Shown: positions 12,977-46,369 of the stretch, piece by piece
Numbering within the stretch: the stretch's first letter is position 1
How the letters are laid out: each line of letters begins with the position of its first letter
Assembly: GCA_951406725.2 (NCBI GenBank)
Contig: OX597819.1
Coordinates: forward strand, 58,156,001-58,220,000
DNA length: 64,000 nt
Source: Octopus vulgaris
Lineage: Eukaryota
Reading direction: 5' to 3'
Translations under genes and position numbers: made by a program
The notes under the pieces: model-generated
Seen by the model: the letters and a program-made list of their open reading frames with translations, nothing else
What the model was told of the DNA's origin: nothing
Database searches by the model: none

Positions 12977-13003
12977 AATAACAACAACAACAACAACGAC
13001 GAC

Positions 13004-13058
<55 letters not shown>

Positions 13059-13073
13059 GCAACAATTATAAAG

Positions 13074-13107
<34 letters not shown>

Positions 13108-13121
13108 CAACAATTATAATG

Positions 13122-13206
<85 letters not shown>

Positions 13207-13232
13207 TAATAATAATAACACTAATAATAATA
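12977..13232. repeat. (AAT)n microsatellite
   Basis: Directly visible. Confidence 0.95.
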
Positions 13233-13279
13233 ATGGTAATCAATCTGTAGGAATATAGAAAAAATCTGTGGAATAGGAC

Positions 13280-13366
<87 letters not shown>

Positions 13367-13449
13367 AGTAGTTGAATGAATTATCTTATTATGGATAATT
13401 CGGTTAACCGATACCTGGGTAGCAAATTCACGTCAGATATATATATATA

Positions 13450-14404
13450 TATATAGGTAAACAGTAAAAATAATTACAGACATGGACAAGAACATGAAAC
13501 GCCACAGAGACGACACAAGAACCACAGGACGGGACATTCGAAGCCCTCAGTCATCAGTCAAGAACCAGATCATCTTAGCAATTTCGGCTGATTAATCTTG
13601 AGATTGCTCCGATATGGGCAGCCCGCCACGGGAAATCTAAGCCAAGTGCATTAGATCCCCTGGAAGAAAGCTTCGAATGTATACAACACGAGGACGGAAA
13701 ACGAACGAAGTACACGAACAAAAATACAGAATACGTGACAACAATAAGAATACAAAAACGTAAAAACAATAACGGTAAAAATAAAGTATAAAAAATAAAC
13801 AACAAAACAAAACCAGGACGTAGGACAAGGGTCTTTAGACAGGACGAATTGAGCATGGGGCTGGCTTGTGAAGTTGTGCCTAATGGCCACAGGGAGACGA
13901 ACAAGTACGTGTTGCTTCAGCGGCTGCTGGAACGAAAAGAGCGCTCAACAGCGGCTGGCGGTCACGTGAGAACAAAAGACAAGAGAAAGGGACAGATGAA
14001 AAGAGAGAGAAGGTGGACGAGGGAGGAGAAGAAAGAGACAGATCGAGGGGGCTGGAGGTGAGAGAGATAGAGAAACGTAGAAGGGGGGGGGGGGGAAACG
14101 GATGGAGAGGGAAAGAAAGGAGGGGGAATAAGGGAGGAGAGAGAGAGAGAAAGAAAGATTAAGAGTCGTATCAATGCTTGAGAAAAAAATATACTTATCG
14201 TATAAGGACAATTGTGGATACGTAGCCGCCGATTATATAGGTAAACAGTAAAAATAATTACAGACATGGACAAGAACATGAAACGCCACAGAGACGACAC
14301 AAGAACCACAGGACGGGACATTCGAAGCCCTCAGTCATCAGTCAAGAACCAGATCATCTTAGCAATTTCGGCTGATTAATCTTGAGATTGCTCCGATATG
14401 GGCA
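13450..14404. mobile_element. Non-coding element with 171-bp direct terminal repeats (784-bp period), inserted in (TA)n; PLE pseudo-LTR-like
   Basis: 13450-13620 identical to 14234-14404; (TA)n on both flanks; no TG..CA ends, PBS or credible ORF. Confidence 0.7.
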
Positions 14405-14446
14405 TATATATATATATATATGTATATGTATATAATATATATACAT

Positions 14447-14533
<87 letters not shown>

Positions 14534-14680
14534 GGTATGTATATATATATACGAATACGTGTATAAATGGTTGGGATTTGTGCTCATCAAAAAAGAACTG
14601 GTGAGGCTCAACATTTCTCGGAACTTTGATGATTCTAGTTGCGTGCTCTTCATGTTTAGGGTTAGCGGGACAACGATTAT

Positions 14681-15413
14681 ATATAATGGTTGTATACTGT
14701 CAATCTAACAAAAACGTGACAGTAGGGGGTACACCACCGCTGTATAGCCCTAGGAAGCATCGAACGCTTCCTGATAGCTTTGACACATTTTTTCACAGGG
14801 AAAAAATGTGTCAAAGCTATCAGGAAGCGTTCGATGCTTCCTAGGGCTATACAGCGGTGGTGTACCCCCTACTGTCACGTTGGGAAAAATGTGTCAAAGC
14901 TATCAGGAGGCGTTCGATGCTTCCTAGGGCTATACAGCGGTGGGGTACCCCCTACAGTCACGTTCTTGTTAGATTGACAGTATACAACCATTCTATCGCC
15001 CCACCACCGTACATGTCTCTACGAGAGATTTAGAAATTCAATATTTCTTATTTTGATAATCAGTGAATAAACTTCACTGAATATAGATATATAGAATTAC
15101 GAAGTCGAGGCAAATATCACCAGCTGACCAGTGTCTGCTACTCTAGGCCGATGAAGGACAACGATCCTGAAACACGGTGTCCCTAGATGCAGTTCCGGCA
15201 GCCGGGGGTGTTTGTCTCCCCTTCGTATATGTATATAAGGACACAGGGAAAAAATGTGTCAAAGCTATCAGGAGGCGTTCGATGCTTCCTAGAGCTATAC
15301 AGCGGTGGTGTACCCCCTACTGTCACGTTCTTGTTAGATTGACAGTATACAACCATTCTATCGCCCCACCACCGTACATGTCTCTACGAGAGATTTAGAA
15401 ATTCAATATTTCT
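14681..15413 (+). mobile_element. Hammerhead-containing 365-bp partial tandem repeat with a 5' inverted copy (retrozyme / non-autonomous PLE-like)
   Basis: 14882-15048 repeats at 15246-15413; extra partial copy 14794-14881; inverted copy 14681-14794; TA-rich flanks. Confidence 0.75.
15142..15187 (+). ncRNA. Type I hammerhead ribozyme (minimal; U4C core variant)
   Basis: Stem I tctagg/cctaga; core CCGATGA; stem II agga-caacga-tcct; GAAA; stem III cac-g-gtg; GTC cleavage triplet (cut after 15181). Confidence 0.8.
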
Positions 15414-15550
15414 GATTATATATATATATATACGTAAATGTATGTGTATAGCGAATATACCTGTGAACTATTAAAAACACACGCACTATATATTTGGTGT
15501 TATTTTGCTTCAGCGTTATTTATTTTTTACATTAATCTTAAACTTATTTC

Positions 15551-15595
15551 GGCCAGAGTTCTTTCGTCACACTCCTGTGACCGCATCAGTGGTCC
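15551..15595 (-). ncRNA. Hammerhead-like motif in the inverted pseudo-LTR (copy of 18727-18771)
   Basis: Exact reverse complement of the motif at 18727-18771. Confidence 0.6.
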
Positions 15596-15925
15596 TTTGT
15601 TTTCTTCTTTCTTATTTGTGTCTCTCCTTACTAACCGTCAGCCATTTTGTATTTCTATTGTATGTCTTCATTTGCGCATGCTTATATCTCTATGTGCGTC
15701 TATGCTTATTTAGTGTGTGTATGTCGGGGGATGCCTGTAATATTTGTATCTTCCGTTTATATACGTTCATGTAATTTGTATTTTGATTTTGTTGTTGTTG
15801 TTTTTGTTTATTCTTATTTTGTTCATGTGTTTACATCCTCTTATTATTATCATTACATATGCTTGTATGTATGTATGTATAACAACAATACTAGTAATAA
15901 TAATAATAAATCGAATCGAAAAAAG

Positions 15926-18308
15926 GCTGATGATTGAAACAGTAATGATAATGAAGATAACCCTAGAAAGACCATTGACATTTATACCCACCCCTTTGAC
16001 ACTCAATTCTTCAACGTATATGACAAATCTTACTGCATGAGCCGGATTTATCCAACAACATTACCCTTCAACAAAAGAGTCTACATACCAAGACATACTA
16101 ATGACCATATGGAAGCACAGTTCACTATAGCTAGGACCAAACTTAGACAGATTTTAGGATTATACACTAAGAGACAGAGACAGAATAAGACAGAGGCCCA
16201 ACAACTCGGGATTAAACCTGCATGTAGCCTACATAAGCTCATTCAGCGCACGAGGAACGGAGAGGTGGTATGCCTTCCCACAGATAAGTCCGGCAGGATG
16301 TCAATAGACAGCTTACCGAACATCCAGGCAATGCAACCTCATATCGCCAATACAAAAATAACAACTTTACAGGCGCATGAGGAGAGAGAAAAGGTCCTCA
16401 ACGCCCACATGATGATGTGGACAATTGTTCTGGGACCCCAGAAACGTACAGCAAATAATTTCCAAGCCTGGAACAATAATATCCCGACACTTATGGACTT
16501 CGCAAGGACCATAAAATAACTACTGACCCTGTAGCAGGACCACCAACAAGACCAGTCTGTGGAGTGAATATCGCTAGCAATTACAGAATCTCCTACTTCC
16601 TCTCAATGATCATACGCCTTATAATCCGGATGTCACCTTATGTTTGTGACAGCACAGAAGATCTCCTCAGAAGGATCGATGACTAACAACACTTGTGACC
16701 TGACAGGATGTATGGTGGGTAGCATGGATGTGGTATCCCTATACCCATCGATCGACGTAGATTTTGCGGTGGAGAAGTGCGTGGAGATGATCAACGAGAG
16801 CCAGGTGGAGTTCCGTAATGTCAATACAGAGGAACTGGGCCTCCTACTTAGACTGACATGTAATAATGAATACTTAGATAAACATAATCTCAGTAGTTTC
16901 TGCCCCAGTAGATGTTTAAGAGGTAGACCACCCACAATTACTTCTATGGCTAGGAAGACACATATAGAAAGATGGCGCGGATGGACCAGAGCCATACGGA
17001 GCCCCGCAAATGTCCATCAGGTAAAGAAAATGATCGCACATGCACTAGGAGCTAGTATAAGAGTTACCCTAAAAGGCCACACGTTTAAGTTTAATAATAA
17101 AATATATGCCCAGGACGAGGGGGCAGCCATCGGCGTTAGTATCGCTGGTGATGTGGCCAACCTTTTCATGGTATGGTGGGACAGAAGGCTTAAAGAACGC
17201 CTAACACAGAACTCCATACTCGTAAACATGTACTCTCGCTATGTTGATGATATCAACATAGTGGTAAAGGCACCCCCACAAGAGAGTAATGTTGATATAG
17301 TAATAGAAACTAATACTATGGAGATCATCCAGCAAATAGCTAACTCCATCCACCAGAGTATTAAGGTCACAATAGACTACCCCACTAAACACCCCAACCA
17401 TAGACTACCAGTACTAGACACTGAACTCTGGCTAGAAATTGTGAATAATAAAACCCAAATCCTTCATTCATACTATGCCAAACCTACGGCCTCAAAATAC
17501 TTGATCCACCGGAACTCAGCTATTGCGGACAATGTCAAATTCAATATTTTGATGGCAGACCTCGTCAGAATAAGGAGAAATGTGTCACGCATGTGCGAGC
17601 CCACAGAGTTAAAGAGACACATACAATATTTCATTCACCGCATGCAGTTCTCAGGTTACAGCCATAAAGAAAGGATCAGAGTATACAAAGGAGCCATGAA
17701 GAAATTTGATAATATATTATGTAATTATAGGAATGGGATTTGCCCACTCTATAGGAACAAGTCATGGAACACTATAGAAAGGACAAAAAAGAAAATAGGT
17801 GAACTGGCGTACCGCTTTAGAAGAACCCTAGACAAACTTAAGCTAAGAATTAAGGTTGTTGAAAAGCCAGGCAACCCTATCAAATCTATAATTGGTAGAA
17901 CCTATCCTTTTAGTAGAACACCCTGTACGGATTAAGTACTGTACTGTATGTAGATTTAGCCCACAAATAAACTGTAAAGCCAGAAATGTAGTCTATAGTA
18001 TAAGATGTATAGAGGGACGATGCAGTAACAAGACAGCGACATACGTAGGGGAAACGGCAAGAAGCATAGGAGAGCGGGTAAATGAAAATTGGAGACAACT
18101 CAAAGAAGGTAAAAACTCATCGATTCTGTACCAACACGCCGAACAGGAACACGGGGGATCAATCAACAATATAGAAATTAAAATATTGTCCACACATAGA
18201 ACAGATGCAACAATCAGACAAATTACAAAAGCTACACACATAATAGAAAATAAACCTAGCCTGAATAGAAAACTAGAATGGAGCACTAGCACACACCACA
18301 ACATATGA
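15926..18308 (+). pseudogene. PLE polyprotein (RT + C-terminal GIY-YIG endonuclease), frameshifted
   Basis: TDKSG, YGLRKDHK..RPV, SMDVVSLYPSI, QDEGAAIG..IAGDVANLFM, RYVDD, LPVLD, YYAKPT; then a Cys-rich linker, VVYSIRC..C..YVGETARSIGER, YQHAEQEH, PSLN; frameshifts near 16490, 16680, 17930. Confidence 0.93.
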
Positions 18309-18726
18309 CGATAGAGGATCCCGAAAACATAATAAATACACAGATAAATAAACAAATAGAAATAAATAACTATATATATTTTTTTTTCTTTTTTCGATTC
18401 GATTTATTATTATTATTACTAGTATTGCTGTTATACATACATACATACATACATACAAGCATATGTAATGATAATAATAAGAGGATGTAAACACATGAAC
18501 AAAATAAGAATAAACAAAAACAACAACAACAAAAACAAAATACAAATTACAGGAACGTATATAAATAGAAGATACAAATATTACAGGCATCCCCCTCACA
18601 TACACACACTAAATAAGCATAGACGCACATAGAAATATAAGCATGCGCAAATGAAGACATACAATAGAAATACAAAATGGCTGACGGTTAGTAAGGAGAG
18701 ACACAAATAAGAAAGAAGAAAACAAA

Positions 18727-18771
18727 GGACCACTGATGCGGTCACAGGAGTGTGACGAAAGAACTCTGGCC
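18727..18771 (+). ncRNA. Minimal type I hammerhead-like motif in the PLE pseudo-LTR (variant core)
   Basis: ggacca-CTGATGC-G-gtcac-aggagt-gtgac-GAAA-gaac-TC-tggcc; A9C change and a near-palindromic stem III. Confidence 0.65.
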
Positions 18772-18947
18772 GAAATAAGTTTAAGATTAATGTAAAAAAT
18801 AAATAACACTGAAGCAAAATAACACCAAATATATAGTGCGTGTGTTTTTATTGGCTAAACTGGCAAAATGACCATTCCGAAATATAACAATATCTGTTTC
18901 AACACACGACTTCACATAAAAAAATCTTGCACAACAAATATTTAAAC

Positions 18948-19016
<69 letters not shown>

Positions 19017-19056
19017 ATATGTATATGTATATATGTATGTATGTTTGTATGTATGT

Positions 19057-19151
<95 letters not shown>

Positions 19152-19780
19152 TAGATAAAACTTACTTGGAAGTGGACGCGTGGCCTTCCATCATATAATA
19201 ACAAAATAATAAATAAAACATACGCATATATACATACATATATGTACGTACCTACATCTATATGTGTATATACATGTATATATGGGTACAGGACACCAAG
19301 ACAAACGTCGAACACAATGAGAAACGAAAACATAAAAACAGAACCATGGAAACGAACATTTTTTTAAACAACGAAAAAACAGGGTACAAGACATACAACA
19401 CAAGGAAAATTCCCCTTCTTCAGCCGCCTCCGTTTCGTCTACTCTTTGTTTCGAAAACACGGTGTAGACGAAACGGAGGCGGCTGAAGAAGTAGTGGTGG
19501 AGGTGATGAAGAGGTGGTGGAGCTGATGGTTGTTATTGTGGTGGTGATTGTGATGGTAAGGAGGGTCCACCCGAGCAAAACAGGAATCAAAGGGGTCCTT
19601 AGGGGAAAAGATGGTGAGAAACACTGTTCCTAATGAATGCATTGCTTTCATTTTGATAAGGCCCAAGTTACTCTATTGGTTAAAAAAAAAAGTGTGAATG
19701 TATATCTGAACCTGTATATGATGCGTGGACATCAAGGAAATGGAAATATATCTTGTATATTACATTTATAGACAGGGCAG

Positions 19781-23642: not shown

Positions 23643-25046
23643 GCTTTTTTTTCTTCTTTCAAATTTTCTTCCATTTCTTGCCGAGTGTCTTCCCGACTCC
23701 TAGGGCAAAGAAACTCATAGTGTATATTGGTAGGCCATTAAACCAAACTCAGTAGTTCGTTCATTTTTTTTTTTTTTTTTTTAAAGTTAAATTAAAATAC
23801 ATGAGCAGCAACAGTTCTCACATCGACAATGCTCTTCTCAATACGTGTGATGTACCAGTTAAGACAATCTTTTGCACTTCTTGCAAGGATGGTAAGCCAG
23901 GGATCATTCTCATATAATTTTCGGTTCCCTTCTTGATCATTCCTAGTGCTCCTACGATCACTGGTATTGTAACCGCCTTGAGATGCCACATTTTCTCAAT
24001 TTCAATGAGTAGGTCTTTATATTTTCTGAGCTTGTCAAACTCTTTCGCTGAGATATTATGATCACAGGGGATGCTCATGTCGATCAATAAGCAAACTTTA
24101 TTGTTTTGGTCTTTCACAACAATATCTGGTTTATTGGCCTTGATGGTTCGGTCTGTATGTACTGGAAAGTCCCACAGAATGGTTACATTTTCTCCTTCAG
24201 TTACAGCCTCAGGGTGGTGATTATACCACTTGTCGGCAGTTTTGATATTGTAATGCCGACTTATTAGCCAGTGGAGATATTGGCCAACTCTGTCATGTCT
24301 TAATTTATACTCCACTGGTGCTAAGACTTTACATCCAGAGATTAGGTGGTCCACTGTTTCAATCATGTCGTTGCAGAATCGGCATTTTGGGTCTGCTCCA
24401 TTTTTCATCACATTGGCCTGGTAGTTCCGGGTTAATAGGCTTTGGTCTTGAGCAGCCAGGATGAAACCTTCGCTCTCTGCTTTTAGCCCTGAGCTCCGCA
24501 GCCACTGATGGGTTTGCTTCTGGTCAACATCAGCTTGTTTGCTGCGGGTCACATATTTGCCGTGCAGAGGTTTCTCCTCCCACCTATCAGCCAATTGCTC
24601 GTGCGCTTTTTTCATTGCCATCATTTTCACCTTCTTTGCAACAATAGTTGCCGTACTTCCCTCGGGTTGTTCAGTTTGGGTATCCTGCACGAGATCAATA
24701 GCAAATTTTTTGCTTTCCTTGATGATAGAATGAAGCTTCTTTCGTCTCTCGTGATTTTCCACGAGCTTTAGCATCCAGTCATTCGATATTTCGAGATATT
24801 TGGCCAGTCCAATTGTGGTTGTTTTGTAAGCTAGTTCAAATTGGATCAGGCCTCGACCTCCTTGGGCTCTGGGAAGGTAAAGGCGATCTACGTCTGCCTT
24901 TGGGTGGTGCATCCTATTACAACTCAGCAGCTTGCGTATTTTTCTATCTATATTCTTTACTTCACTCATATTCCAGTTCAACACATTGTAGCTATAAGTA
25001 ACAACTGGAACTGCTAAGGAATTTATAGCTAACACCTTGTTACGTG

Positions 25047-25048
<2 letters not shown>
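23643..25048 (-). mobile_element. 5'-truncated Dong/R4-type RLE LINE (family A) in (TAA)n; open 405-aa C-terminal ORF
   Basis: RLYLPRAQGGRGL, LHGKY, CRFC..ETVDHLISGC (CCHC), RHD, KPDIVVKD..LIDMSIP..KLRKY; TTA tracts on both sides. Confidence 0.92.
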
Positions 25049-25115
<67 letters not shown>

Positions 25116-25187
25116 GGCGTCAAATCTTAAAAACAACAACAATATTATTATCATCATCATCATTTTTATTATTAATATTATTATTAT

Positions 25188-25846
25188 TCAGTAGTATATT
25201 TTTTATATCGTGCTTTCACTTCACTACCGAGCACAGCTCTGTGTGCCTTGGGTATGTGCTGTGATTTGTTGTGATGCTCTGATGGTTATAGAATGGAAAG
25301 TGTTCTGCGTAGGATGTGTGCAGTGCCTAGTAGTGCAATTTTCTGTATGTTGTATGCGTTTGTAAGTCCTGGTATTTTTGTTATGTATTTGTCTGAATAT
25401 TTTTTTATCATGCCTAATGCACCTACTATGATAGGAATTGTTTCTGTTTTTAGATTCCACATTTTGGTTACCTCTATTTCCAGGTCTTTGTATTTTGAAA
25501 GTTTCTCCATTTCTTTTAGAGACACGTTGTCATCCGCTGGTATTGATACATCAATTAGAAAACATTTTTTTCTTCATGATCTCTGACAACTATATCTGGT
25601 CTGTTGGCCTTAATTTCTCTGTCTATGAGTATTGGCATATCCCAGAGTATGGTTGCTTTCTCGTTTTCTGTGACCTTTTCTGGTGTGTGCCTATACCATC
25701 TCTTTTCTGTTGTTATTCCATAATGTTGGGCATAGTTTCCAGTGTATATAGGTCCCAACTCTGGCGTGTCTGTGAATATATTCCTTCTTAGCCAGGACTG
25801 GGCAGCCAGAGATAATATGATTTATTGTTTCTTGTCCATCTCCACA
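25188..25846 (-). mobile_element. 5'-truncated Dong/R4-type LINE (family B)
   Basis: NHIISGCP, ILWDMP, RPDIVVRD, KLSKYKDL, IVGALG; frameshifted; TTA flanks. Confidence 0.9.
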
Positions 25847-25862
25847 TTATTATTATTATTAT

Positions 25863-28800
25863 TCTATGTTTGACTTTTGCTTTATATTTGTACAAGTTGG
25901 CTCCCAGTCTCACCCAGAGACCTCAAGAGACAAAAGGTTGGAAGTTCATGTTGTTGTTATGCCTAGTGTGCCATATATTTTTGGGGGGGGGAGTTTTTGG
26001 TGTTGTACTAATGAATGTCTAAAAAAAAATTTTTTTTTTTTTTTAAACCGAGAATTATGTTTGTTTTAAACCTGGAGATTACATAGAAAGTATTTTGCGT
26101 AGGATATGAGCAGTTCCCATGAGCACTATCTTTTGAATTTCTGCCATTTTGGGGTTTCCTGGTATCTGAGTTAGGTAGCTATCAGCCCCTTTTGCTATCA
26201 TTCCCAGGGCACCTATGACAACAGGTATTGTTTTAGTCTTCAGCTTCCACATTTTGCTGATTTCTATTTCAAGATCTTTATATTTGCTCAGTTTTGGGTA
26301 GGTCTTGACAGATACGTTTATATCGATTGGGACAGTCATATCAATGAGGAGGCATGTTCTTTGTTTGAAGTCTTTCAATATGATGTCTGGCCTATTTGCA
26401 TCTATCTTTCTGTCAGTTTGAATGGTGAAGTTCCAGAGGAGTGAGATGTGGTCATTTTCAAACACTGGGGGTGGTTTGTGTTCCCAACAGTTTTTTTCAT
26501 GGGGCAAATCCAGGTTTTTGCAGATTACCCAGTGAATATATTGTGCAGCTCTATCGTATCTGTTGAGATACTCTGTAGGCGCTAGAAGACTGCACTTGGA
26601 GACCACATGGTCAATGGTTTCATTTTGTTGCTGGCATACACGACACGTTGGACTGCTTCTGATCTTTAATATGTTGGCCTGGTAGTTTCTTGTTGGTAGG
26701 CATTGATCTTGAGCTGCTATGATAAACCCCTTCTGTTTCAGATTTTAAGCCAGATGCCATTAGCCATTGATGGGTCAGGGCTTTGTCAACATCTGCAGTA
26801 TTTGCTCTCTTTTGGTATTTGCCATAGAGAGGTTTTTCTTGCCATTTATCATTCAGAATATCTAAGGCCGCAGATTTAACACGGGTTTTCATGCGCTTAG
26901 CTTTTTTCTGTGCCTGTTTCTTGTATGTCTATCTCTAATTCCGAAATTTGTTGTATTCGGAATTCACTTAGATATTCCTTTACCTGTTTTGTTACTGAAT
27001 ATGATGCTTTCTTGTTTTCATGTTTTGAGACAAGTTTTAGCATCCAGTCCTCAGAGTTTTTCAGGTAAGTGTCTAGGCCAATTGTAGCAATCTTCATTGT
27101 TATTGCCAGTTGTAAAAGTCCACGGCCTCCCTCTTTTCTTGGCAGATAAAGTCGTTCTGTATCTGCCTTAGGGTGGTGCATTCTATGCATTGTCAACAGT
27201 TTTCGTATTTTTCTGTCAAGATTACATATTTCAGTAATTGACCAGTTAACGATATTGAAACTGTAAGTCACAACTGGTATGGCTAATGCATTGATCGCTT
27301 CGATCCTGTTTCTCGCATTCAGCTCTGTCTTGAGTATTGCTCTTACTCTGCGATAACATTCTCTCCTGATCCTTTCCTTCATCTCTGAATGCCTTATTCC
27401 TTCTCCTTCAATTACCTCTAGATACTTGTAGTTCTCTGCTGGGTCTAATTCTTTTGTGACATTCTGCTGGTCAAGGTTAACGTTAGATGTTTCTGTCATT
27501 TTTCCTTTGATAAAGGTAGCTTTTGCACACTTATCGAGGCCAAATTGCATTCTGATGTCATCACTGAATTGTTTGACAATCGCTAGTAAGCCCTTGAGTT
27601 GTTGGTCATTTTTTGCAAAGAGCTTTAAATCATCCATGTAAATGAGATGATTTATATTTTTATCAAACATTTTATACCCGTACTGCGCGTCATTCAGCAG
27701 TTTTGAGAGAGGTATTAAGGCTAAACAGAAGAGGAGTGGTGATAGTGAGTCACCCTGGAAAATGCCACATGAAATTTTTACATCACCAGCATTTAGAGAT
27801 TCATTGTCACTATTCAAAGTTAGTGTGGTTCTCCATGATCTCATGCTTACAGACAAAAAGTTTCGCAAAGCAGGTGCTATCTTATACATTTCTAGGCATT
27901 TCTTAATCCAGCTATGCGGTAGGCTATCAAAAGCCTTTTTATAGTCTATCCAGGCTATTGATAAGTTTTTGTGTCGTTTGTGACAATCTTCTTAGATCAT
28001 CTTATTGATGAGTAGTTGATCTTTACAACCGTAGGATCCACGTTTACATCCTTTCTGTTCATTAGGGAATATGCTGCTGTCTGTCAAAAAACTATAGGTA
28101 TATTCCGTCAGGACAGATGTTAGTGTTTTATACATAGTTGTTAAGCAGGTTATGGGTCTATAGTTTTTGGTTCATTTGTTTCTTCACTTTTTGGAAGCAG
28201 GAATGTTACCCCATTAACTAGCCAAGGAGGCATCCCACTAGGGTGTTGCAAAACATCATTGTAAAGTTCTGTTAGCAGTTCATGGCTCTCTGGGAAGGCA
28301 TTCAACCAAAAGTTAGGGATTTTATCCTTTCCTGGAGACTTCCATTTGCTTGACCTCCTGAGAGCAGATCTTATATCTTCTACCTTGACACCCTCCCGCT
28401 TTTGCTCTTCTAAGGAGTCCAGTTCTTTAAATATTCTATCAATCCATGGGGCCTTTTCGCTGTGTTTTTTCTTCTGCCCAAATTTTATTCCAAAATCCCT
28501 GCACTTCTTCTTTTGATGGTACAGTCTTTACAGTAACTGTTGTTTTTCCTATCTTCCTGTAAAAATTTTTGGGGTTATTTTTGAACATGTTGTTGTCCCT
28601 GAAGAATGTAACACGCTTTTCATACCTCCCTATGCGGGCAGCTTTAGCAGATACCTTTTGCTTGATGGTTTCTATGGTGGCATCAATATCAAGTATAGTT
28701 TTCATATTATATTTTTTCATTAGTTTGGGGGTTTTTGTAGGTTTGGTAGTCTTATGAACCTTAAGGTTTTTCAAATATTCAATGTCAGATCTAAATAGTT

Positions 28801-30028
28801 TAATTTGTTGTTGCAAACGCTCTTGCCAAGAAGGCTTTTTGTGGAAATGTTGCCGTTTTCTAATCTTTTCACCACATAGGATCGTTGAGATTTTCGCAGA
28901 TGCATAGTATAGGTGGTTGAGATCTGTGATATCAACATCATTAGCTGAAATTATATCCTTAAGTGCAAGCCGGGTTTTACCAATTATTTTCATGTTTTGG
29001 TTAGAGTTGCGGATTTTAGGGAGTGTATCACGTTCATCCATACTGGTTTCTTTAATTTTCAGCCATTCAATCATGATTTGACTTTTTAGCTCATGTAGTT
29101 CTGTCGGATCAATATTTGTGTGACTTTCTTCATCTATTTGATGTTCATCTGTCTTAGTGTTTATATTTGGTTCAGGGAGTATTTCACTTTGCCTATCACT
29201 TATACTAACTCTTTCATCCTTACTTCGTTTTTATTAGCTCTGAGCCGGTCTATAATTATTTCCTCTGTATTATCTTCTTTAGCTGCAGCTTCGTTCATTC
29301 TATCCGTTACTGCTTGTCTAATTTGATCAATCTCTACTTCAGTCAGTAATTTTTTTTATAATGTTTCTTCTGACGTTGGCAAGTTTGTTACTGTCTATGT
29401 AGGGTCTTACTTCAGGGTGTTTCTGTCTCCAGTTTATGTAGGTTTGTATAGTGTTCAATTTATCTGTGGGGAAATATATAGCATAGTAGAAGGCCGCAAG
29501 AACTTCTTTGTTATCTTCCCTAGTCCATTTTTCCTTCTTTTTCTTTTGAGTGTTTGGTGACGAGCATGGATGGCCATCTGTTGGAATATTCCAGTTGCGG
29601 GGTACGTCCAGCTCCTGTGTGTCGGGAAGATTTGATCCAGGAGCTGATTTTTCAATCAGACTTTGGTTCAATTTTCGGGTTCGTGGTCTTTTGTAGTCCG
29701 CTCGTCGACCATCGCGGATTGCAGGTTGTTTTGTTGACATTGAAGCATGACGAGCTTCGACTCTTACATTAAGAGACGGATCTGTCAGTTTAGGATTCTC
29801 TGCACGTAAACATTGTTCGTAGCGCAGCTTCTTAAGGTTAGCAGATCTGTATTCGTCTGTATTTTTTTTGTTGATAGTTTTATCTCCGGGCATAGTTTTC
29901 CCTTCTTCTTTTTATTTATTCATTCATTTTTTTTTAAACCTATGAAAGGTTCACTCTGCAGAAAACAGTAGATCTTCCAGTTTTTCCGTTGCCACGCTGG
30001 GTTGGTCAGAGCAGCGAAAAACACGTCC

Positions 30029-44752: not shown

Positions 44753-46369
44753 CATTATCTTTCTGTCAGTTTGAACGGTGAAGTTCCAGAGGAGTGAAAT
44801 GTGATCCTTTTCAAGAACTGGAGGCGGTTTGCCTTTCCACTAGTTTTTATCATGGCACAGGTAAAGGTTTTTTGCAAATTACCCAGTGAATATACGGTGC
44901 TGTTCTATCATGCATATTTAGATACCCTGTACGCGCAAGAAGACTGCACGTGGAGACAACATGATCAATGGTTTCATTTTGTTGTTTACATACACGACAT
45001 GTTGGGCTACTGCCGTTCTTTAATATGTTGGCCTGTTAGCTCCTTTTAGGTAGACATTGATCTGTTTCAGATTTTAAGCCAGAAGACACTAACCATTGAT
45101 GAGTAAGGGCTTTGTCAACATCGGCATTATTAGCTTTCTTTGGGTATTTGCCAATAAGAGGTTTTTCTTGTCATTTATCAGTATACCTAAGGCAGCAGTT
45201 TTAGCACGGGTTTACATACGCTTAGCTTTTTCTGTGCTTGTTTCCAGTACGTCTAATTCTGGAATTTGTTGTATTTGGAATTCATTTACATATTCCTTTG
45301 CCTATTTTGTTACTGAGAATGATGCTTTCTTGTTTTCATGCTTTAAGACAAGTTTTAACATCCACTCATCAGCGTTTTCAGGTAGATGTTTAAGCCAATT
45401 GTGGCAATCTTCATTGTTAATTCCAGTCGTAAAAGTCCACGGCCACCCTCTTTTCATGGCAGGTAAAGTCGTTCTATATCTGCCTTAAGGTGATGCACTC
45501 TATGCATTGTCAACAATTTTCGTATTTTTCTGTCAAGATTACATATTTCAGTAAATGACCAGTTAATGATATTGAAACTGTAAGTCACGACCGGTATGGC
45601 TAAAGTATTGATCGCTTCGATCCTGTTTCTTGCATTCAACTTTGTCTTGATTATTGTTCTTACCCTGCGGTAACATTCTCGTCTGATCCTTTCCCTTATC
45701 ATTGAATGTTTGATTACATCACCTTCAAATACCCCAAGGTTTTTGTAGCACTTCTCTGGTTCCAACTCCTTTATGACATTCTATTGGACAAGATTAACAT
45801 TGGATCTTTCTGCCATTTTTCCTTCGATAAAGGTAGCTTTTGTACATTTATCGAGGCCAAATTGCATCCTGATGTTATCATTGAATTGTTTAACAATTTC
45901 TAGTAAATCCTGTAGCTGTTGGTCATTTTTTGCAAAGAGCTTTAAATCATGCATGTAAATGAGATGATTTATATTTTTATCAAACGTTTTATAGCCATAT
46001 TGTACATCATCGAGCAATTTCGAGAGAGGTATTAAGGTTAGACAAAAGAGGAGTGGCGATCGAGAGTCACCCTGGAAAATGCGCCATGAAATTCTTACAT
46101 CTCCAGTATTGAGAGATTCATTGTTACGGTTCAAAGTCAGTATGGTTCTCCATGATCTCAAACTTACAGACATGAAGTTTCGCAGAGTAGGAGCTATTTT
46201 ATACATTTCCAGGCATTTCTTAATCCAGCTATGTGGTAGACTATCAAAAGCTTTTTTATAGACTATGTGGCAGACTATCAAAAGCTTTTTTTATCGGCAG
46301 GTTTTTGTGTTGCTTGTGATAATCTTCCAAGATCATCTTATTGATGAGTAACTGATCTTTACAACCATA
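44753..46369 (-). mobile_element. Degenerate internal fragment of Dong family C
   Basis: Colinear with about 26400-28030 (YKKAFDSLPH, IFQGDS, YMHD, RIEAINTLAIPV); 5' end abuts (TTA)n; 34-bp internal duplication near 46230-46293. Confidence 0.9.

Follow-up and report, generated by a model that had tools for sequence, protein, structure and literature searches.

A 365-bp non-coding repeat of Octopus vulgaris with a U4C hammerhead motif and Penelope-like insertion anatomy

The window, that is, the whole stretch of 64,000 nucleotides of Octopus vulgaris contig OX597819.1 that was analysed, carries a non-coding insertion at 14686-15413, in which an inverted 109-bp piece is followed by an 88-bp partial copy and then by a 365-bp unit with part of a second one. 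The features of the insertion and of its immediate neighbour are as follows (position, strand, description).

14675-14685, no strand: left 11-bp direct repeat, equal to 15414-15424, GATT followed by a TA run; candidate target-site duplication
14686-14794, minus: inverted 5' piece, reverse complement of unit positions 15248-15356
14794-14881, plus: 88-bp direct partial copy of unit positions 15242-15329 (98% identical)
14882-15246, plus: full 365-bp unit, 43.8% GC, without ORF and with strong self-pairing
15135-15192, plus: extended stem I with an internal loop, from the fold; the U at 1.7 is 15188 and the A ending loop II is 15164
15142-15187, plus: type I hammerhead motif with U4C at 15149 and a near-palindromic stem III, from the motif scan, shuffles and family variation
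15175-15177, plus: middle of the palindrome in stem III; its predicted pairing with core positions 15148-15150 (P 0.98-0.99) would hold the ribozyme shut
15247-15413, plus: second copy of the unit's first 171 bp, ending at the common 3' end of the family (15413-15418)
15414-15424, no strand: right 11-bp direct repeat, continuing into (TA)n, its first 4 letters possibly derived from the element
15472-18850, plus: decayed coding Penelope-like element (PLE), context outside the insertion, with reverse transcriptase (RT), C-terminal GIY-YIG and inverted terminal arms of about 410 bp

The 365-bp period described in the earlier note was confirmed: 14882-15052 recurs at 15247-15417 (171 bp, 97%), and an offset of 365 gave 161 matching letters of 164, whereas the 11 other offsets tried gave 35-56. 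The two 171-bp copies differ at 5 of 171 positions, one of them at an A run, differences that are uninformative on a circular versus a multimeric template. The sole period given by TRF at the locus was 83 bp (14802-14964). The tandem array that had been proposed was not recovered, as the locus amounts to about 1.46 units, one full unit plus 171 bp, with one ribozyme. The absence of an ORF was upheld (the longest ATG frame has 57 codons and no stop-free run exceeds 75), as was the structured character of the unit, whose fold beat 100 of 100 shuffles (z -5.55). The aggaagc/gcttcct hairpin does not belong to the unit, which reads aggaggc, but its aggaagc arm is present in the upstream partial copies. 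No tRNA was found by ARAGORN in 13000-19500, a search that decayed heads could escape.

The extent given previously, 14882-15413, covered the unit and the partial second copy; neither the upstream pieces, inverted arm and 88-bp copy, nor the direct repeat at the flanks had been noticed. The inverted piece is 96% complementary to 15248-15361 and matches 14800-14881 in 82 of 82 letters. The resulting perfect 82-bp palindrome, with a 5-base spacer (14713-14881 of the window), could form a cruciform or a long double-stranded RNA. A microRNA precursor at 14743-14851, suggested by Rfam, was rejected, the matches being the perfect inverted repeat with a score below gathering. The flanking 11-mer occurs three times in the window, both strands considered, and two of these occurrences are the insertion flanks. 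We take this repeat for a duplicated target of the form GATT(AT)n. At 11 bp it is longer than 4 bp, as expected for a non-LTR retrozyme, and its first 4 letters may be the element's own; on this reading, 14686-15413 likely arose in a single event. Partial tandem, inverted 5' piece, common 3' end and TA-rich, microsatellite-like target were all present; an inverted piece, a partial copy and a unit between direct repeats at a TA run are the anatomy of a PLE insertion. The portion consulted of PMC8557442 reports, for PLEs, partially tandem insertions that carry an inverted 5' copy and favour TA targets. The insertion further resembles endonuclease-bearing (EN+) PLEs and their non-autonomous derivatives, as presented there and, for Poseidon PAc, in PMC11167929, in its ATT-containing target, its staggered 3' ends (15413 vs about 15356) and the hammerhead in its repeat. 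Unlike those elements, it has no ORF, a 3' end unlike that of any PLE seen here, and hammerhead stems of canonical rather than minimal type.

All three pieces start within unit positions 15242-15248, for which random ends would give a chance of about 0.001; the cluster was spotted post hoc and hints at a preference for a given RNA 5' end or switch point. Near this start lie strings that, read by eye, may be TATA-like (15233-15240) and B-box-like (15278-15286), and which could also be read as favouring a SINE-like origin.

The neighbouring PLE has arms 97-98% identical to each other and the motifs DKSG, YVDD and YVGET. Its RT (E 0.00026) and GIY-YIG (E 0.071) matches are weak and below Pfam cut-offs, and a PDB sequence search with the RT returned one weak match (E 0.019). 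The earlier description of this PLE as autonomous-type holds for its type but not for its present state, its frame being broken into at least four pieces. From its Cys-rich linker it is probably of Neptune or Nematis type. At this locus the unit adjoins no RT/GIY-YIG ORF of its own family, and it has no similarity to this PLE or its terminal repeat, as had been claimed for the latter, the local scores being equalled by 29-121 of 200 shuffles; the closeness of the two likely reflects a common preference for TA runs and not a partnership.

Other elements of the window, which comes from a microsatellite-rich animal genome, were also recorded. The terminal repeat of the neighbouring PLE contains a hammerhead-like motif at 18726-18777, whose core at 18733 is CUGAUGC, without the A of position 9, and whose stem II is longer; an inverted copy lies in the arm 15472-15730, and the fold is no better than shuffles. 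About 100 bases after the right arm (18850-18949), before the TA run, are absent from the inverted left arm and are a possible PLE tail. Between TA runs at 13450-14404 there is a second small non-coding element, which may be a further non-autonomous insertion of PLE type. Its two direct repeats of 171 bp are identical and separated by 784 bp; each repeat has CTGATGA on the minus strand, and no complete hammerhead was found there by the descriptor scan. Remnants of non-LTR retrotransposons with an RT and a restriction-like endonuclease end, which we take to be R4/Dong-like, occur at 23818-29911 and 45781-46290 (minus strand).

The type I hammerhead proposed at 15142-15187 was recovered with a stem I of 6 bp, a stem II of 4 bp, CCGAUGA, GAAA and GUC, and a predicted cut after 15181. 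When the window was scanned on both strands with a hammerhead descriptor, one core mismatch being permitted, two matches were obtained in 64 kb, of which this is the better; the second has weaker stems. Dinucleotide shuffles of the unit gave any hammerhead match in 4 of 3000 and an equally good one in 0 of 3000. No hammerhead match was obtained with Rfam, neither at gathering nor at E values up to 10. The core departs from the canonical CUGANGA by the U4C change, and stem II opens with A-U instead of the usual G10.1-C11.1, two differences from canonical metazoan type I hammerheads. The other type I features are present: three stems, GAAA, an NUH site, U1.7 and the terminal A of loop II, the last two being the letters of a known loop-loop contact according to the text available from PMC11875169. 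In the sections of PMC4209133 consulted, the metazoan PLE minimal hammerhead has a stem II of 7-8 bp, a stem I of 4-5 bp, an extra base after A9 and no stem III. With its stem lengths and its palindromic stem III, 15142-15187 is, by those definitions, a canonical metazoan type I motif and not a PLE minimal one. The 6/4-bp stems, the short, dimer-compatible palindrome of stem III, U1.7 and the loop II terminal A are shared with the type I hammerheads of the newt satellite and of schistosome SM-alpha, as these are given in parts of PMC4209133 and PMC6155905.

The presence of related copies was assessed in other contigs. The stretch was present in 20 of the 24 runs listed, ten of them with at least half of its words; six studies and four organism codes were represented. 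Four runs (X1, X3, X9 and X12) were aligned to 15049-15471 at 82% likeness to the window copy, with 5152, 55, 5596 and 150 contigs aligned, those of the TA flank counted in; X9 and X12 were used as contigs and not as evidence of expression. In the two large runs, as many as 41-89 different contigs share a given variant position. Among those listed, contigs leave the element at 15413-15418 into differing flanks (X9, n=3; X12, n=2 and 1). The 3' end is joined to the unit start with other junction letters in two contigs (X1, 15411 to 15049; X3, 15413 to 15052), opposite strands are joined in three, and a diverged 3'-end-like sequence precedes 15050 in five X3 contigs. Such joints are present while no contig of the four runs spans the whole unit. 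As read from these contigs, the unit is a dispersed family with a common 3' end and an inherited head-to-tail continuity. The earlier idea of a ribozyme RNA mobilised by PLE RT stands in so far as the family is non-coding and structured, with PLE-type ends and head-to-tail copies elsewhere; an active two-unit retrozyme at this locus was not borne out.

Loose ends at 15279, 15312-15314 and 15339 were found in both large runs, where related subfamilies share parts of the 3' half and differ on one side; several subfamilies may thus make up the family as a mosaic. The summed depth of contigs peaks at 15319-15363; over the ribozyme it falls to about a fifth of this peak, and at 15094-15108 to about 2%. 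This profile would fit mostly 5'-truncated copies at thousands of loci, a reading not used because contig depth is not copy number and does not allow parts to be ranked. Pattern scans of metagenome contigs, viral contigs and prokaryote genomes gave no match.

When the core was compared as CUGAUGA vs CCGAUGA, the runs aligned had CCGAUGA. Position 15149 has no row among the variant rows listed, and all C>T places of at least 8% (3 of 3 in X3, 3 of 3 in X9 and 4 of 4 in X12) correspond to listed rows, namely 15121, 15162, 15203 and 15387; the run tallies thus imply that 15149 stays C in at least 92% of the depth in these three runs. In X1, four C>T places were tallied and three are among the rows listed, so that a U4 minority is possible there, and with recruitment at 82% likeness to the window copy more distant U4 subfamilies escape view. 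By the tally, the C is likewise retained in X9 and X12 pieces with a divergence of about 10%, which indicates that U4C is old in the family. A private decay of the window copy was rejected as its origin, the C being common to the family contigs.

Of 40 rows, 14 were checked, and the weakest of these had 0.19 as its highest share. In the rows listed, variation touches 1 of 39 constrained ribozyme positions; for free positions the figure is 4 of 8 (Fisher p 0.002) and for the flanks 28 of 120 (p 0.002). Beyond those listed there are 11 substitution and 4 indel rows; the flank contrast is lost if 3 of the further rows fall on constrained positions (p 0.11), and the free-position contrast if 5 do so (p 0.05). 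The variants listed within the motif affect position 7, loop II (two sites), the stem III centre and, rarely, 15150; apart from this last change, none of those listed touches U1.7, the loop II A, the stems, GAAA or the site.

The hammerhead had been called fully pairable, which is correct on paper but not in the predicted fold. In the circular unit, C4 completes a 3-bp helix between the core and the centre of the stem III palindrome in loop III, whereas stem III itself has P 0.00. Folding was based on nearest-neighbour energies, in which Mg and loop-loop or tertiary contacts are ignored. On this basis, the active fold lies above the minimum by 5.4 kcal/mol in the circle and 5.7 in the tandem dimer with C4, by 3.2 and 1.3 with U4, and by 2.7 and 0.0 in a variant with one G less in the palindrome. 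This one-G-less variant, which makes a double hammerhead its minimum fold, represents 13% of the depth in X3 and less than 1% in X1. For the majority C4 form, dimers are predicted not to rescue the active fold; contrary to such a lock, the double hammerhead of the bare 46-nt motif is merely 0.2 kcal/mol over the dimer minimum.

The same core change is known from a viroid hammerhead in which, by the portion consulted of PMC3088659, U4C activity in vitro was considerably lower and infectivity was still permitted, so that the weaker ribozyme was enough in vivo. There it is an RNA variant of a plant pathogen, whereas here it is the majority state of an animal genomic repeat. In another hammerhead, every single or double mutant of the CUGA turn had low activity except for a C3/G8 swap (PMC9901934, as far as its available text goes). 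Taken with the predicted fold, the ribozyme looks maintained but damped.

Signs of cleavage were sought at contig ends. X3 contigs start at 15182 and 15185, at the predicted cut, which are 2 of the 16 left boundaries among those listed (p 0.013-0.08 by window width), a selection with 359 loose ends and 11019 pieces beyond it. In the contig-end table, ends do not accumulate at the cut. The contig that starts at 15182, the first base past the predicted cut, is there joined to 15352, in an AC-rich region, two letters fitting both sides; such a trace would be expected from a template jump off the 5' end of a cleaved RNA. The two starts are a weak hint of cleavage. The conserved motif, the loop-loop letters and the contig starts at 15182 and 15185 suggest, at the level of sequence, that cleavage does occur.

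The element shares with metazoan non-LTR retrozymes (Cervera and de la Pena 2020, PMC7229834; Li et al. 2026, 10.64898/2026.07.22.740005; both as partially consulted) a non-coding unit of a few hundred bases within 150-450 bp and below 50% GC, a type I hammerhead, strong self-pairing, a long target duplication and co-occurrence with PLEs; solo copies are known there too, and a link of these retrozymes to non-autonomous PLEs is argued in the same two sources. It differs in the single ribozyme at the locus, in CCGAUGA across the sampled family and in being known here from sequence alone. Most described animal circles are predicted to let the ribozyme fold, according to the text seen of PMC7229834; in the circle of the present unit it is predicted shut. 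The available part of 10.64898/2026.07.22.740005 defines an active retrozyme by at least two consecutive ribozyme units. As the locus has one ribozyme and its core is not CUGANGA, it is not filed as such; given the predicted folds, it is best read as a solo retrozyme-like copy whose ribozyme may be weak or conditional.

The most probable account, to which we give a probability of about 0.55, is that of a non-autonomous element mobilised by a PLE and copied from uncut or re-ligated RNA longer than the unit, with cleavage rare or assisted. In this account, the RT and endonuclease of a PLE would act in trans on the family RNA. The PLE protein would bind such a longer-than-unit RNA, and its endonuclease would nick both strands at a GATT(AT)n site. 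One nick would prime cDNA at the family 3' end (15413), running through the ribozyme site into the next unit and then jumping to a second template at 14881/14882; the other would prime the inverted piece at unit position 15356 or so. Repair would finally join the two cDNAs head to head and duplicate 11 bp. The portions consulted of PMC11167929 describe a Poseidon PAc protein that cleaves and extends both strands, prefers ATT and has two internal start sites, and a copying process without need of ribozyme cleavage, the Poseidon ribozyme cutting only with the protein. By analogy, both-strand extension with two internal starts may explain why the inverted piece ends about 57 bases off the main 3' end. 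Since C4 lowers catalysis in the published tests and pairs with loop III in the predicted fold, cleavage is likely rare or dependent on a protein or a variant partner, and likely dispensable for copying; having a single ribozyme, the copy alone cannot release unit-length RNA. Against this account, the neighbouring PLE has no sequence in common with the unit.

A possible alternative, held with doubt, is a classical non-LTR retrozyme with arrays of two or more ribozymes elsewhere, whose dimers cleave efficiently despite U4C and whose 365-nt circles are copied for more than one round by a PLE RT, the locus being a solo offspring. The unit size and GC content fit the ranges given in the available text of PMC7229834; the stem lengths and palindromic stem III are those of tandem-repeat hammerheads in the sections seen of PMC4209133; the loop-loop letters are present, the copy exceeds one unit and crosses the cut site, the two X3 contig starts agree with the cut, and the one-G-less form reaches the double hammerhead as its minimum. 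These points are opposed by the one ribozyme at the locus, by the absence of a visible array (within contigs that do not span a unit), by the majority U4C with its predicted lock, by the low activity of CUGA-turn mutants other than the C3/G8 swap in what was available of PMC9901934, and by a cut site without end pile-up, the 16 boundaries being a selected listing.

A third account appears improbable: the unit would belong to a coding PLE elsewhere, as its terminal repeat plus 3' untranslated region, and the locus would be a 5'-truncated copy with template jumps. The same inverted and partial-tandem anatomy would be expected, and 5' truncation is the rule among PLE copies. Between retrozymes and PLE terminal repeats there is no sharp border: in the text consulted of 10.64898/2026.07.22.740005, 24 of the 57 families in Xenopus matched annotated repeats, nearly all PLEs. 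However, the unit's own 3' end lies upstream of the ribozyme here and, with differing junction letters, in other contigs, and five X3 contigs have the diverged 3'-end-like sequence in that place. No shift into coding sequence was seen among the loose ends listed (untranslated, with 359 beyond the listing), and the stems are canonical and differ from those of the minimal type, in which stem II is long and stem I short. It is very improbable that the unit is a SINE-like or satellite repeat whose inherited ribozyme fold is dead and which spread through a LINE or through recombination, as there is no tRNA-like head in the range covered by ARAGORN and no own poly(A) or simple-repeat tail, the anatomy is inverted and partially tandem, and variation avoids the ribozyme stems among the rows listed, even though LINE remnants lie in the window and schistosome SM-alpha is a hammerhead-bearing SINE-like repeat in the portion seen of PMC8490949.

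As a class, PLE-moved hammerhead repeats are already described, and one further family is modest news; what is new is a multi-copy family that keeps U4C with the rest of the ribozyme constant. The literature searched, including the available parts of PMC6155905, PMC6765202, PMC8490949 and PMC6962438, contained no report of a genomic family with U4C, with Lunse et al. on PLE hammerhead variants, supplements and Repbase/Dfam lying outside the search; the one match listed for the CCGAUGA/CCGANGA core concerns a therapeutic ribozyme. Searches demanding CUGANGA would miss such families, and Rfam missed the 365-bp one.

The family bears on two open questions, what keeps the ribozyme inactive in the circles of animal retrozymes (as raised in the consulted text of PMC7229834) and whether PLE copying needs cleavage (likewise in PMC11167929), and its C4, U4 and one-G-less forms are a ready natural series. 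We consider it rather unlikely that the fixed U4C is an off switch, in which the C would pair with the palindrome and keep circles or units uncut until a PLE protein or a one-G-less partner unlocks them. If true, the lock would be a natural answer to how hammerheads stay silent in animal retrozyme circles.
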